Positions 10,609 through 25,237 of a stretch of DNA of 26,521 nucleotides are shown here, piece after piece. This DNA is from a virus (taxonomy: Duplodnaviria; Heunggongvirae; Uroviricota; Caudoviricetes). Within the stretch, counting starts at the first letter, position 1. Each line of letters starts with the position of its first letter. Location of the stretch: IMG/VR virus record IMGVR_UViG_2875722834_000004. The stretch is one strand, 5' to 3'. The translations under genes were made by a program, and so were the position numbers. Below the pieces are notes generated by a model. That model did no database searches. It had not been told where the DNA came from and saw only the letters and a program-made list of their open reading frames with translations.

Positions 10609-11658
10609 GTGCGGGTATTACTTAGACCTGTTCTGGTGCCTGAGCTTGGGCTGGTGGTCCTTAAGCCGGGCCGTGAATCCATACAGATATTTCATAATCC
10701 TCGAGTGCTGGTGGAACCGGAACCAAAAAGCATGCGTAATCTGCCATCCGGAGTCGTTCCTGCCGTTCGCCAGCCGCTGGCGGAAGACAAAACATTGCTG
10801 CCGTTTTTTAGTAACGAACGGGTGATTCGTGCTGCTGGCGGCGTTGGCGCATTGTCCGACTGGCTATTACGTCATGTTACATCCTGCCAGTGGCCTAATG
10901 GCGATTACCATCACACTGAAACAGTCATTCACCGTTATGGTACCGGCGCAATGGTGTTGTGCTGGCACTGCGACAACCAACTGCGTGACCAGACATCGGA
11001 ATCACTGGAGCTGCTTGCTCAACAAAATCTGACAGCATGGGTGATTGACGTCATCCGTCACGCAATAAGCGGTACGCAGGAGCGGGAATTATCTTTGGCT
11101 GAATTATCCTGGTGGGCGGTCTGCAATCAGGTGGTGGATGCACTACCTGAGGCTGTATCGCGTCGTTCGCTGGGATTACCAGCGGAAAAAATCTGCTCGG
11201 TGTACCGCGAAAGCGACATCGTACCGGGAGAGCAGACCGCCACCAGCATATTGAAACAACGCACAAAAAATCTTGCACCGTTGCCTTACGCCCACCAGCA
11301 ACAAAAATCACCACAGGAAAAGACGGTGGTAAGCATCACCGTTGATCCAGAGTCTCCGGAATCTTTCATGAAGCTGCCTAAACGTCGCCGCTGGGTTAAG
11401 GAGAAATACACACGTTGGGTTAAGACACAGCCGTGTGCTTGCTGCAGTATGCCAGCCGACGATCCGCATCATCTGATTGGTCACGGGCAGGGCGGAATGG
11501 GAACAAAAGCACATGATCTCTTTGTGTTGCCTTTGTGCAGAAAGCATCACAACGAGCTGCATACGGATACAGTGGCATTTGAAGATAAGTATGGCTCCCA
11601 ACTGGAGCTGATATTTCGTTTTATCGATCGCGCGCTGGCAATTGGCGTACTGGTGTAA
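10609..11658 (+). CDS. ydfU: YdfU-like protein (DUF968-type) with a C-terminal HNH/zinc-finger-like motif
   Basis: GTG start 4 nt after a GGAGG SD; 349 aa, the length I recall for K-12 YdfU; C-terminus has CACCSMPADDPHHLIGHG...CRKHHNELH. The six-frame ORF extends upstream to 10570. Confidence 0.7.
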   Translation: MRVLLRPVLVPELGLVVLKPGRESIQIFHNPRVLVEPEPKSMRNLPSGVVPAVRQPLAEDKTLLPFFSNERVIRAAGGVGALSDWLLRHVTSCQWPNGDYHHTETVIHRYGTGAMVLCWHCDNQLRDQTSESLELLAQQNLTAWVIDVIRHAISGTQERELSLAELSWWAVCNQVVDALPEAVSRRSLGLPAEKICSVYRESDIVPGEQTATSILKQRTKNLAPLPYAHQQQKSPQEKTVVSITVDPESPESFMKLPKRRRWVKEKYTRWVKTQPCACCSMPADDPHHLIGHGQGGMGTKAHDLFVLPLCRKHHNELHTDTVAFEDKYGSQLELIFRFIDRALAIGVLV

Positions 11659-11671
11659 GTGGAGAACGAGC

Positions 11672-12424
11672 ATGAACCTTGAAGCCTTACCAAAATATTA
11701 CTCCCCAAAATCTCCAAAATTGAGCGATGACGCTCCAGCGACAGGCACCGGTTGTTTAACAATTACGGATGTAATGGCAGCGCAGGGGATGGTGCAGTCG
11801 AAAGCACCACTTGGGTTGGCCTTATTTCTGGCAAAAGTTGGTGTTCAGGACCCTCAGTTTGCGATTGAAGGCCTGCTAAATTACGCGATGGCACTGGATA
11901 ACCCGACATTGAACAAATTGAGTGAAGAAATCCGGTTACAGATTATTCCTTACCTCGTGAGTTTTGCCTTTGCTGATTACTCCAGGTCTGCGGCAAGTAA
12001 GGCTCGCTGTGAGCATTGTTCAGGTACGGGATTTTATAATGTATTGCGCGAAGTGGTGAAACACTACAGACGCGGGGAATCTGTAATCAAGGAAGAATGG
12101 GTGAAGGAACTATGTCAGCATTGCCATGGTAAGGGCGAAGCCAGCACAGCGTGCAGAGGGTGTAAGGGTAAAGGGATTGTTCTGGATGAAAAAAGAACCC
12201 GGTTTCATGGCGTACCGGTATATAAGATTTGTGGGCGTTGTAATGGAAACCGGTTTAGTCGTTTACCGACCACGCTGGCACGACGTCATGTCCAGAAGCT
12301 GGTACCAGACCTGACCGATTATCAGTGGTATAAGGGGTATGCGGACGTCATTGGTAAACTGGTAACAAAGTGCTGGCAGGAAGAAGCATACGCGGAAGCG
12401 CAATTGAGGAAGGTGATGAGATAA
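11672..12424 (+). CDS. quuQ: Late-gene antiterminator Q homolog (QuuQ-like), 250 aa
   Basis: Cys/His-rich zinc-binding region (CEHCSGTG...CQHCHGKG...CRGCKGKG...CGRCNG) typical of Q-family antiterminators; sits upstream of the lysis cassette. Confidence 0.75.
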   Translation: MNLEALPKYYSPKSPKLSDDAPATGTGCLTITDVMAAQGMVQSKAPLGLALFLAKVGVQDPQFAIEGLLNYAMALDNPTLNKLSEEIRLQIIPYLVSFAFADYSRSAASKARCEHCSGTGFYNVLREVVKHYRRGESVIKEEWVKELCQHCHGKGEASTACRGCKGKGIVLDEKRTRFHGVPVYKICGRCNGNRFSRLPTTLARRHVQKLVPDLTDYQWYKGYADVIGKLVTKCWQEEAYAEAQLRKVMR

Positions 12425-19859: not shown

Positions 19860-20108
19860 ATGGAAGTCAACAAAAAGCAGCTGGCTGACATTTTCGGTGC
19901 GAGTATCCGTACCATTCAGAACTGGCAGGAACAGGGAATGCCCGTTCTGCGAGGCGGTGGCAAGGGTAATGAGGTGCTTTATGACTCTGCCGCCGTTATA
20001 AGATGGTATGCCGAAAGGGATGCTGAAATTGAGAACGAAAAGCTGCGCCGGGAAGTTGAAGAACTGCGGCAGGCCAGCGAGACAGATCTCCAGCCATCCG
20101 TGAGGTGA
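19860..20108 (+). pseudogene. Terminase small subunit Nu1, truncated after ~80 codons (NohQ/NohA-like remnant)
   Basis: First 80 aa near-identical to lambda Nu1 (MEVNKKQLADIFGASIRTIQNWQEQGMPVLRGGGKGNEVLYDSAAV...RQASE); the frame then reads PSVR and stops at a deletion junction with gene A sequence. Confidence 0.85.
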
Positions 20109-21790
20109 ATGTGGTGAAGTCTGCCCGTGTCGGTTATTCCAAAATGCTGCTGGGTGTTTATGCCTACTTTATAGAGCATAAGCAGCGCAACACACTTATC
20201 TGGTTGCCGACGGATGGTGATGCCGAGAACTTTATGAAAACCCACGTTGAGCCGACCATCCGCGATATTCCGTCGCTGCTGGCGCTGGCTCCGTGGTATG
20301 GCAAAAAGCACCGGGATAACACGCTCACTATGAAGCGTTTTTCCAATGGTCGTGGCTTCTGGTGCCTGGGCGGTAAAGCGGCAAAAAACTACCGTGAAAA
20401 GTCGGTGGATGTGGCGGGTTATGATGAACTTGCTGCCTTTGATGAGGATATTGAACAGGAAGGCTCTCCGACGTTCCTTGGCGACAAACGTATTGAAGGC
20501 TCGGTCTGGCCAAAGTCCATCCGTGGCTCCACGCCCAAAGTGAGAGGCACCTGCCAGATTGAGCGTGCAGCCAGTGAATCCCCGCATTTTATGCGTTTTC
20601 ATGTTGCCTGCCCGCACTGCGGGGAGGAGCAGTATCTTAAATTTGGCGACAAAGAGACGCCGTTTGGCCTCAAATGGACGCCGGATGACCCCTCCAGCGT
20701 GTTTTATCTCTGCGAGCATAATGCCTGCGTCATCCGCCAGCAGGAGCTGGACTTCACTGATGCCCGTTATATCTGCGAAAAGACCGGGATCTGGACCCGT
20801 GATGGCATTCTCTGGTTTTCGTCATCCGGTGAAGAGATTGAGCCGCCGGACAGCGTGACCTTTCACATCTGGACGGCGTACAGCCCGTTCACCACCTGGG
20901 TGCAGATTGTCAAAGACTGGATGAAAACGAAAGGGGATACGGGAAAACGTAAAACCTTCGTAAACACCACGCTCGGTGAGACGTGGGAGGCGAAAATTGG
21001 CGAACGTCCGGATGCTGAAGTGATGGCAGAGCGGAAAGAGCATTATTCAGCGCCCGTTCCTGACCGTGTGGCTTACCTGACCGCCGGTATCGACTCCCAG
21101 CTGGACCGCTACGAAATGTGTGTATGGGGATGGGGGCCGGGTGAGGAAAGCTGGCTGATTGACCGGCAGATTATTATGGGTCGCCACGACGATGAACAGA
21201 CGCTGCTGCGTGTGGATGAGGCCATCAATAAAACCTATACCCGCCGGAATGGTGCAGAAATGTCGGTATCCCGTATCTGCTGGGATACTGGCGGGATTGA
21301 CCCGACCATTGTGTATGAACGCTCGAAAAAACATGGGCTGTTCCGGGTGATCCCCATTAAAGGGGCATCCGTCTACGGAAAGCCGGTGGCCAGCATGCCA
21401 CGTAAGCGAAACAAAAACGGGGTTTACCTTACCGAAATCGGTACGGATATCAATATCAAACCGGGCCATGATTATTACTTTTATATCCGCAGTGTGAACA
21501 CCGTTGGCAAATCGGCATTCGTGGAGGCTGTCGGTCAGGCGAGCGATGATGCGGAAGGTTACCTGGATTTTTTCAAAGGCCAGATAACCGAATCCCATCT
21601 CGGCAAGGAGCTGCTGGAAAAAGTCGAGCTGACGGAGGATAACGCCAGCAGACTGGAGGAGTTTTCGAAAGAGTGGCAGGACGCTAACGATAAGTGGAAT
21701 GCCATGTGGGGCGTCAAAATTGAGCAGACCAAAGACGGCAAACATTATGTCGCGGGTATCCAACAGCGTATGGAAATATCATTCACCTGA
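20105..21790 (+). pseudogene. Chimeric remnant: terminase large subunit A (internal ~448 aa, lacking the N-terminus) fused in frame to a C-proximal segment of tail protein J
   Basis: Residues from [14 protein letters not shown]... to ...VYLTEIGTD match lambda gpA; from about 21449 the ORF reads [22 protein letters not shown]...[24 protein letters not shown], matching lambda J, then ends. Confidence 0.8.
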
Positions 21791-21795
21791 AAGGG

Positions 21796-22641
21796 ATGAC
21801 AGCCGTTGGCGAAGGTGAGTTACTCATCGGCTGGAGTGGTACAAGCGGTGCTCATGCTCCGGCATTTATTCGTTCACGACGGGATACGACCGACGCAAAC
21901 TGGTCGCCGTGGGCGCAGCTTTACACCTCGGCTCATCCTCCTGCAGAGTTTTATCCAGTCGGTGCACCAATCCCGTGGCCATCAGATACCGTTCCGTCTG
22001 GCTATGCCCTGATGCAGGGGCAGACTTTTGACAAATCTGCATACCCGAAACTTGCAGCGGCTTATCCGTCAGGCGTGATCCCTGATATGCGTGGCTGGAC
22101 GATTAAGGGCAAACCTGCCAGTGGTCGGGCCGTATTGTCTCAGGAACAGGACGGCATTAAATCGCATACCCACAGCGCCAGCGCATCCAGTACGGATTTG
22201 GGGACGAAAACCACATCGTCGTTTGATTACGGCACTAAATCCACGAATAACACTGGTGCGCATACCCATAGTTTAAGTGGCAGCACGAATGCAGCTGGTA
22301 ATCACAGCCATAGAGATGGCCGTCGATTTAACCCCAGTGTTTTTAAAGATACTTATCAATATGGTTATACAAGCTCAGGTCAAAATACCTGGGGTGTACA
22401 AGGCTCAGTAGGTATGTCTACGGGGTGGTTAGCTAATACCAGTACAGATGGTAATCATAGCCACTCACTGTCCGGCACAGCAGCATCTGCAGGTGCACAC
22501 GCGCATACTGTCGGTATTGGTGCTCATACGCACTCCGTTGCGATTGGTTCACATGGACACACCATCACCGTTAACGCTGCTGGTAACGCGGAAAACACCG
22601 TCAAAAACATCGCATTTAACTATATTGTGAGGCTTGCATAA
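21796..22641 (+). CDS. Side tail fibre protein fragment (Stf C-terminal region) with His-rich repeats
   Basis: ATG with AAGGGA SD; repeated G-x-H-x-H motifs (GAHTHS, GNHSHR, GNHSHS, GAHAHT, GAHTHS, GSHGHT) typical of lambda/Rac/Qin Stf C-termini; followed by tfa. Confidence 0.7.
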
Positions 22642-23216
22642 TGGCATTCAGAATGAGTGAACAACCACGGACCATAAAAATTTATAATCTGCTGGCCGGA
22701 ACTAATGAATTTATTGGTGAAGGTGATGCATATATTCCGCCTCATACAGGTCTGCCAGCAAACAGTACCGATATTGCACCGCCAGATATTCCGGCTGGCT
22801 TCGTGGCTGTTTTCAACAGTGATGAGTCATCGTGGCATCTCGTTGAAGATCATCGGGGTAAAACGGTTTATGACGTGGCTTCCGGCGACGCGTTATTTAT
22901 TTCTGAACTCGGTCCGTTACCGGAAAATGTTACCTGGTTATCGCCGGAAGGGGAGTTTCAGAAGTGGAACGGCACAGCCTGGGTGAAGGATACGGAAGCA
23001 GAAAAACTGTTCCGGATCCGGGAGGCGGAAGAAACAAAAAACAACCTGATGCAGGTAGCCAGTGAGCATATTGCGCCGCTTCAGGATGCTGCAGATCTGG
23101 AAATTGCAACGGAGGAAGAAATCTCGTTGCTGGAAGCATGGAAAAAGTATCGGGTATTGCTGAACCGTGTTGATACGTCAACTGCACAGGATATTGAATG
23201 GCCAGCACTGCCGTAG
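22641..23216 (+). CDS. Tail fibre assembly protein (Tfa), 191 aa
   Basis: Size and position directly downstream of stf (TAATG overlap); resembles lambda Tfa. Confidence 0.8.
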
Positions 23217-23313
23217 GGTAAAACATATAAATTCTATAATTAGATGTATCTTTCCATTTACGGCAAGGAAGGGGGCTTGGAAGACGTAAAGCATCTCACA
23301 CCGAGATTATTTT

Positions 23314-23904
23314 TTATATGTCAGGTGTCTGAAGTTTTGCTTTGGCTCTTAAAATGGTTTGCCGCGAGGTTTTGAATTCCCGGGCAATGGCACTTATACT
23401 TACACCTGACTTAATTCGTTCGAATACCACCTGTTTCTGTTCTTCATTTAACACAGGTGGTCGACCAAAACGTTTCCCTGCGCCGCGGGCTCTTACTATC
23501 CCGGAATGAGTGCGTTCAAGTAAAAGGTCTCGTTCAAATTCAGCGACTGCTGAAATTACGTGCATCATCATTTTTCCTGTTGGACTGGTCAGGTCAATGC
23601 CCCCCAATGCTAAGCAATGCACTCTGATACCTGTTTCGGTCAGTTGTTCCACTGTTTTCCTGATATCCATTGCATTACAACCAAGGCGATCCAGTTTTGT
23701 CACAATCAATTGATCACCACATTTCAGGCGAGCAAGCAACCGGTTAAAACCAGGACGCTCACTGGTTGCTGCTGAGCCGCTAATGTGTTCTTCGATTATT
23801 TGCTGAGGTTTGATTTTAAAACCTGCACTTTCGATTTCCCGGCGTTGATTTTCGGTGGTCTGATCCAGCGTTGATATCCGACAGTAAGCAAAAATTCGAG
23901 ACAT
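23314..23904 (-). CDS. Serine recombinase / DNA invertase of the Pin/Gin/Hin family (PinQ/PinR-like), 196 aa
   Basis: [20 protein letters not shown]... with the catalytic Ser in the CRISTLDQ motif and a C-terminal HTH; convergent with tfa. Confidence 0.9.
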
Positions 23905-24220
23905 AGTGAGACTCTATACGAAATTGGTGTTCATATCATAATGCATCTCAGAAAATAATTTTGATTATTTTTGTGCATATTTGTATGTACACGTTCGAAA
24001 ATAAACGAATGCGTATGCAACCCCGTAACTTTGGTGAGACCCAAAATCGATTTTGTGAAAAATGGCTTTAACTCGGTTTGTTTTTCGAGTTCCGGGCGGA
24101 CTCAAGGAAGAAGAATAGTGTTGCGTGTTATTTTAACCAAATTTCAAGTTGTTTGGTCGTGGAAAAGTGGAGCAAAATGTTGTTAAAGTGGAAAAATGAT
24201 AAAAAAGTAAGTTTATTATA

Positions 24221-24454
24221 TTACATTTTACCATTTAAATTTTGGTTGTCTTTAAGAACTGATATCGCTGTTTGTAATAATTCTTTGTTATCCAGCCATG
24301 ATTTTTTCTTTATGTTTCCTTCAATGTAATCAAGCAATGTTCTGGTATTGATAGGTCTTCCCTGTTTTGCTACTTCCACTACAGCATCCCCTAGGATAAT
24401 TCTTACTTCAGGAAGCTGCGCAGGGAACCACTTTAGGGTGTCTTTTGATTTCAT
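24221..24454 (-). CDS. ydfK: YdfK/YnaE-like small protein (77 aa)
   Basis: MKSKDTLKWFPAQLPEVRIILGDAVVEVAKQGRPINTRTLLDYIEGNIKK... matches my recollection of YdfK; AAGGA SD; AT-rich flanks. Confidence 0.7.
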   Translation of the reverse strand: MKSKDTLKWFPAQLPEVRIILGDAVVEVAKQGRPINTRTLLDYIEGNIKKKSWLDNKELLQTAISVLKDNQNLNGKM

Positions 24455-25237
24455 GAAGATATTCCTTAAAATATTATTGATTTTCATTGCGATATTGTAT
24501 GTCTGATTCAGGATATGTTGACTTATACATCGGTTTTGTCTGGGTTATTGGATATGCCAATCCCTAATTTTATTAGGGCATGACTAAAAATGCTGAATAT
24601 GATAAGGAGAGAAGTGATTATCAGTATGCTGTTCATATAGCCTCGAATTAGTAATGTGTTATATATGATATAGTTGACAATTTTATCTTGGGTGTTCTTA
24701 AAGTTCGTAGATAAACATTGTCGTTTCAGGTATACAGGAATGCTAACAGGTGGCGGCAAAAATCAGGCGGTTTATGGCGCAATCTGAAGTGGCAACTGCA
24801 AACTATCTTATGCAGAGACTCTACACGGATTGGGTTTAAAAGTATACATAGATAACAGTTTTTATCTGAAGAAGAAAAATATCAAGGTGATATAGCCTAT
24901 ATGCCTTTGATGTGGAGGAATGAATGTGATGGGAGTGATGTATCTGAATAGTTGAAAAACCGCAGACACACCTTATGCAAGAACGTGCTGCGGTTGGCTG
25001 GTAAATTTTTCGATAGTGCGAGTATTGAATGATTTCCAGCCGTTATTGATTTTACGCGTAAATCCATGAAAAAACTACTTATCTGTTGGGGAGTTTTTTG
25101 GGGCATATATGGGACAGAAATAGGCCCCAGATAGACACTGAGATCGAACTTAGGATGCTTTTAAAAAAATGCAACTATCTGAAAAAACCTAGAAAACGCC
25201 AAGGAAACCACAGGATGGGAAAAAACACCTGTGAATT

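Follow-up and report, generated by a model that had tools for sequence, protein, structure and literature searches.

The PinQ recombinase of the Qin prophage as a probable remnant of a Tn3-family transposon resolvase

Small serine recombinases that invert DNA are best known from the Hin/Gin/Cin/Pin group, the members of which share roughly 60% or more mutual identity, are functionally interchangeable, and are served by a Fis-bound recombinational enhancer that usually lies within the 5′ end of the invertase gene. An active serine recombinase carries, in Tn3 numbering, the catalytic set Y6, R8, S10, D36, R68 and R71. Within the Tn3 family, Tn5403 has been described as a cryptic element made up of tnpA and tnpR only, and the 'Tn5403-pinR' that appears in AMR papers is the Tn5403 resolvase auto-annotated as PinR. 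Most E. coli genomes have the genes pinQ and pinR themselves, under the routine label 'DNA invertase from lambdoid prophage', and automatic annotation carries the invertase name onto the Tn5403 resolvases of resistance plasmids.

The window, by which we mean the whole stretch of 26,521 nt that was analysed, covers the Qin cryptic prophage of E. coli in full, with the integrase at one end and the interrupted ydfJ gene at the other, and it is identical (100%) to the corresponding DNA of E. coli strain HH107. The open reading frames of the stfQ remnant, tfaQ and pinQ were confirmed at the positions collected in Table 1, with pinQ on the minus strand and convergent with tfaQ and the stfQ remnant, both on the plus strand; intact relatives of stfQ are 1023-1130 aa long. 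Ahead of them lies an open reading frame, annotated as a pseudogene in HH107, that joins the terminase large subunit (ATPase and nuclease) in frame to the Ig/tail-tip part of J, and this fusion is the scar of the deletion that took out the Qin head and tail genes. In KL53 and OZ510750 the match to positions 21000-24600 of the window falls into two pieces with about 360 additional bases somewhere in that span; going by the annotation of KL53, their place may be the terminase pseudogene. At some distance from this region (about 11447-11802 of the window; HH107 locus L025, 11528-11883) relB is intact and relE is annotated as truncated, its C-terminus gone, which makes relB an orphan antitoxin left from a relB/relE toxin-antitoxin pair in this Qin copy.

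Table 1. Position and basis of assignment of genes and of putative transposon remnants around pinQ in the window
Feature	Position	Strand	Basis or detail
Terminase gpA::J C-terminal fusion	20105..21790	+	Pfam GpA_ATPase, GpA_nuclease, Ig_J_second and Phage_Tail_Tip within a single ORF
stfQ remnant, C-terminal part of side tail fibre	21796..22641	+	Pfam Collar and Phage_fiber
tfaQ, tail-fibre assembly gene, sole copy	22641..23216	+	Pfam Caudo_TAP, E=3.6e-43; annotated tfaQ
Diverged terminal IR of Tn3-family (Tn5403-like) transposon	23271..23308	+	Outer tip 23271 (GGGGGCTTGGAAGACGTAAAGCATCTCACACCGAGATT)
pinQ, 196-aa small serine recombinase	23314..23904	-	Pfam Resolvase and HTH_7, E=3.6e-36
res site III-like remnant	23912..23936	-	One good half-site, TATACGAAA; alignment with transposon res and half-site scan
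res site II-like 34-bp dyad	23945..23978	-	ATGCACAAAAAT-N10-ATTTTCTGAGAT; column-by-column homologous to transposon dyad
res site I (crossover site), right half	23990..24001	-	Alignment with transposon res
ydfK (YnaE family)	24221..24454	-	Annotation in HH107 and K-12

The first-pass annotation had named PinQ a Pin-family invertase, an assignment that the identities do not support. Membership of the Hin/Gin/Cin/Pin group was rejected on mutual identity, PinQ having 39.1% identity to PinE of e14 and 36-39% to Gin, Cin, Pin-type and P2/Mu-like invertases, as against 78-84% to the TnpR proteins of Tn5403-like elements of the Tn3 family, a name that rests on literature usage and not on the reference Tn5403 sequence. 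Within the phage collection a gap separates the PinQ group (at least 98.5%) from all others. Outside the phages, 1,653 plasmids carry PinQ relatives at 60-90% identity, and the TnpR of pMOO-32 is 83% identical to PinQ. In pMOO-32, tnpR is divergent from the gene of a 994-aa Tn3-family transposase across a gap of 160 bp, and perfect inverted repeats of 38 bp, 3,815 bp apart, enclose the unit. The same order of tnpA, gap and recombinase gene accompanies the 78% relatives in Klebsiella, Hafnia and Shewanella baltica, and indeed a divergent DDE_Tnp_Tn3 transposase stands beside the recombinase gene in all non-phage relatives examined. A search of PinQ against NCBIfam gave nothing above any curated cut-off and was uninformative. 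Three copies of the 3.8-kb transposon are present in a single S. baltica genome (CP002811, CP002813; loci L020-L022); they are identical, two being chromosomal and one on a plasmid, with unrelated flanks, and their presence in different contexts speaks for current mobility of the intact element. Erwinia phage LS-2018a, which is unrelated, has a recombinase of the PinQ clade, 61% identical, between its terminase and portal genes (locus L024, 5001-5606), and a second match elsewhere in its record; a tail fibre, tnpA and convincing repeats were all absent nearby, and this relative, though uninformative, may be another independent capture. The PinQ homologues of more than 90% identity that PMC12529663 lists in the trematode Clonorchis sinensis are almost certainly bacterial contamination of the assembly and not a true eukaryotic gene.

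The relationship to the transposon extends beyond the coding sequence on both sides of pinQ. Downstream, 36 of the 49 positions from the pinQ stop codon to the tip of the inverted repeat (IR) match the transposon, and the stretch at 23271-23308 is in register with the 38-bp IR, GGGGTCCGCTTGGAAAACGGAAAATATCCCACGCTAAG, found at the end of the transposon in pMOO-32 and others. Exactly past this tip the similarity drops to background, in every plasmid and in the phage. Taken alone, with its position ignored, the IR match is no better than that of the best shuffle, and the argument for an IR remnant is therefore one of position and register and not of match score. A local-alignment scan found no second transposon IR. 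As the phage has an IR that is specific to the transposon, the direction of transfer is from transposon to phage. Upstream, about 100 bp (about 23912-24001) are homologous to the transposon res and are degenerate. The res of four transposon lineages has three conserved dyads, namely site I (TGACCGAAA-N8-TTTCGKACA), site II (TGTCCGAAAG...ATTTCGTACA) and site III. Of these, the site II-like dyad of the window keeps its 34-bp geometry with the CG core gone from both half-sites, and at site I, where the transposon homology fades, the left half is either lacking or shifted by about 20 bp; the two alignments disagree on this left half, neither yields an intact dyad, and the breakpoint in res is not sharply defined. 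The same state, a partial site III, a site II mutated at its cores and the right half only of site I, is found in all phage lineages. A search of the whole window for dyads of the transposon type turned up no intact one, its single match, at 3 mismatches, being what chance would give. The gene tnpA is absent from the window, and the spot expected for it is occupied by phage DNA, ydfK, which is also the neighbour in the phage-borne relatives. A promoter and terminator scan around pinQ gave weak consensus matches only and did not confirm a TATGAT element deduced from homology.

The enzyme had been described at first pass as intact, and this holds for its open reading frame, for the catalytic Ser11 (codon 23872-23874) and for the C-terminal HTH, but not for the catalytic arginine. 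At the position of Arg71 of Tn3/gamma-delta resolvase PinQ has Cys76 (codon 23677-23679), which HMMER aligned to the arginine of Gin and to R71 of gamma-delta resolvase. The motif reads KLDRLGR, with the arginine, in 112 of 120 homologues and KLDRLGC, as in PinQ, in 5, and the same cysteine is found in PinQ of K-12, in PinQ of phages Turner and Kati and in a sister phage lineage at 84% identity. The other key residues of PinQ are Y7, R9, S11, E39 and R73, so that the full serine-recombinase catalytic set is broken at the R71 equivalent. Resolution in vivo was lost when any of six residues of Tn3 resolvase was mutated, R71 among them, and cleavage fell about 1000-fold; both R71A and R71K had this effect (PMC2794168). 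The R71 mutants were also described as 'not inert' (PMC2794168), which makes residual activity of PinQ under overexpression possible. PinQ probably has weak or no recombinase activity and survives as a protein that binds DNA; it possibly represses its own promoter at the remnants of sites II and III.

The first-pass annotation had also reported one stf-tfa set without an adjacent invertible segment and no recognisable paired gix- or pix-like sites, and on both points it was borne out. There is a single stfQ remnant and a single tfaQ. The gix/hix consensus, with up to three mismatches allowed, had 0 matches in the 26.5 kb of the window; in a lenient scan of the window for the pix dyad the best site was wrong at 6 of 20 specified positions, which is the level of shuffled sequence; and a generic inverted-repeat search of 19.5-25.3 kb returned chance-level pairs only. 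Inversion was sought with a synthetic junction made by flipping the pinQ module relative to tfa. This flipped junction was contiguous in none of 5,426 complete E. coli genomes, the native junction being contiguous in 2,037 of them, and inversions of Qin and Rac were likewise not found by Kirigo et al. (PMC12529663). An apparent second tfa in strain UC4224 proved to be a single tfa interrupted by IS3, and not a flip cassette.

One reading of these results is that PinQ is an invertase orphaned by the decay of Qin, the ancestral flip cassette, a second inverted tfa′-stf′ set with its crossover sites, having been deleted. Mu, P1 and e14 would be the precedent, and heavy deletion of Qin is visible in the terminase::J fusion and the truncated stf. 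The phages that carry the gene today speak otherwise. PinQ at 98.5-99.5% identity is found in 11 phage records, and the complete, plaque-forming lambdoid phages with such a PinQ are Turner, Kati, 2H10, mEp460 and Tritos. In Turner and Kati, the two phages inspected for neighbourhood, the order is J-lom-stf (full length)-tfa, convergent pinQ, ydfK-like genes and the b region, with one stf, one tfa and no second cassette. An intact prophage (locus L001) has the same layout, its apparent second tfa being the IS3-split gene described above. As viable phages share the layout of a single stf-tfa set and pinQ, the gene was not orphaned through the decay of Qin; furthermore, it is convergent with tfa, the transposon IR lies between the two, and the flipped junction is missing from all of the genomes searched, which together leave the loss of a flip cassette scarcely credible. 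The analogy drawn earlier with Mu, P1 and e14 thus fails in its geometry, Turner and Kati being natively single-cassette, and the suggestion that the enzyme is orphaned stands in so far as there is no local substrate and falls in so far as it implies a lost cassette. PinQ is without a cognate recombination site in cis in this genome, and pinQ never had an adjoining invertible segment.

The further suggestion at first pass, that the enzyme may act on distant sites, agrees with the proposal of Kirigo et al. (2025, NAR; PMC12529663) that PinQ is an active invertase whose substrate in trans is the P segment of e14 with its pix sites, the product being a chimeric StfE2 that blocks T2 adsorption. 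In their work survivors of T2 had a 1797-bp inversion of the P segment, overproduction of PinQ from a plasmid took the inverted share from 30% to 88%, a rise that would imply a catalytically active PinQ, and the effect was abolished on deletion of stfP, stfE or e14 (PMC12529663); the PinQ of the window is about 98% identical to that of K-12 (4 differences in 196 residues). The same paper, however, reports a delta-pinE strain that was locked in one orientation despite the presence of pinQ and pinR, and it presents neither a catalytic mutant nor an in vitro assay (PMC12529663). K-12 PinQ itself has the Arg-to-Cys change, its recognition helix is unlike the VSTLYKRFPA of PinE/Gin, and PinQ and PinE share 39% identity. 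The target is also missing from the DNA covered: the P segment is not in the window, no pix-like site was found there, and in HH107, for which the icd locus was covered, e14 is absent from its attachment site at icd, the gene order there being iraM-icd-rluE. With Cys76, the locked delta-pinE strain and the empty icd site all opposed to it, we consider action of PinQ as an invertase in trans unlikely. Something of a long shot, in our estimate, is that PinQ/PinR is a naturally disabled (Arg-to-Cys) resolvase, kept by purifying selection in lambdoid phages as a DNA-binding factor, that biases or regulates the PinE-catalysed inversion of the P segment indirectly and does not catalyse it; such an effect on the PinE switch would come about by mixed complexes, site occupancy or expression, and PinQ would then be a 'pseudo-recombinase' regulator of another prophage's switch.

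Thousands of genomes carry an intact pinQ open reading frame. For pinQ compared with the tnpR of the transposon dN/dS is 0.15, between the two Cys-bearing phage lineages it is 0.38 (26 synonymous and 35 non-synonymous differences), and the alleles of the window, Turner and Kati differ by 0 synonymous and 1-4 non-synonymous changes, which suggests that the constraint on pinQ is relaxed and not absent. The value of 0.38 points to continued purifying selection and hence to some function, and a constraint that is relaxed but present makes a non-catalytic or weak function of PinQ plausible. IS903B, IS1B and IS481 lie inside or beside pinQ, and IS3 inside tfa (L001, 3889-5725), in several strains; the pinQ locus is one that tolerates disruption. 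Mosaic pinQ alleles also occur in prophage context (L009, 6001-6591; L011, 38-628; proteins P0003 and P0005-P0008), in which the N-terminal 90-140 residues are identical to plasmid TnpR, with the arginine kept, and the C-terminus is of the PinQ type. Their make-up implies that prophage pinQ has recombined with the Tn5403-like tnpR of plasmids, and recombination of this kind could restore the arginine.

These mosaics, taken as repeated exchange between plasmid tnpR and prophage pinQ, could also be brought forward for a PinQ that is still an active resolvase of distant cognate sites, be it the res of plasmid Tn5403-like elements or sites in the Rac and Qin copies between which it would act. The HTH of PinQ is nearly identical to that of transposon TnpR, and relatives of PinQ are common on enterobacterial plasmids. 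Homologous recombination, however, accounts for the mosaics equally well, and with the catalytic arginine replaced by cysteine and its own res degenerate, site I not being intact, we regard a resolvase that is still at work on distant sites as very improbable.

We propose a model for the origin of pinQ that most reasonably fits these observations, in which the gene is probably the stranded tnpR fossil of a Tn3-family transposon in a lambdoid phage, without a substrate in cis. A compact Tn5403-like transposon would have entered an ancestral lambdoid phage at a point immediately 3′ of tfa, and tnpA and the left half of the crossover site in res would have been lost later. The remaining res subsites would have decayed, and the catalytic arginine, the equivalent of R71 in Tn3/gamma-delta resolvase, would have been replaced by cysteine. 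The natural substrate of such a family would be a directly repeated pair of res sites in a cointegrate and not an invertible cassette, in which case no gix- or pix-like sites are to be expected beside the gene. Observed directly are the homology, the cysteine, the remnants of IR and res, the layout with a single native cassette and the absence of inversion polymorphism; we infer that catalysis was lost and that a role in binding remains. Counted against the fossil origin are the intact open reading frame, the dN/dS of 0.38, the result that Kirigo et al. obtained by overproduction of PinQ, the unsharp breakpoint in res and the score of the IR match. The model explains the lack of an invertible segment beside pinQ and corrects its annotation, and it casts testable doubt on an anti-phage defence in which, as claimed in 2025, e14 inversion is catalysed by PinQ itself. 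Furthermore, the mosaic alleles show that sequence passes between transposons on plasmids and the late regions of phages. The gene pinQ is already known; its reinterpretation, the IR and res remnants and the change in the active site appear to be new to the searchable literature.

The PinQ/PinR of the 'recombinase-activated phage inhibition' of Kirigo et al. is the same gene at the same Qin locus, with an approximately 98% identical protein, and the difference lies in the P-segment target, which is absent from the window and from the icd site of HH107. With Hin (Salmonella), Gin (Mu), Cin (P1) and PinE (e14) PinQ has in common the small serine recombinase fold and the place beside tail-fibre genes, and by sequence its closest solved structure is that of Gin (E=2e-30, vs 3e-22 for gamma-delta resolvase). 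Unlike these invertase genes, pinQ is convergent with tfa and does not abut a crossover site; it is without 26-bp inverted crossover sites, a second cassette or orientation polymorphism, and its product has a different recognition helix and lacks the active-site arginine. With the TnpR of Tn5403-like elements (IR-tnpA-res-tnpR-IR, about 3.8 kb) PinQ shares its length, within the approximately 185-200 aa of such resolvases, the identity of 78-84% and the Resolvase and HTH_7 domains (PF00239, PF02796), and the locus has the homologous 3′ flank up to the 38-bp IR and equivalents of sites II and III upstream; the 38-bp IR typical of the Tn3 family (GGGG...TAAG) is found once in the window, in diverged form. 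Unlike the functioning element, pinQ is embedded in the late or b region of a lambdoid phage, with one IR only, site I disrupted, the site II cores mutated and a cysteine at the R71 equivalent. As tnpA is absent and ydfK stands upstream in its stead, PinQ is best placed as a descendant, and not a functioning member, of the TnpR resolvases of the Tn3 family.
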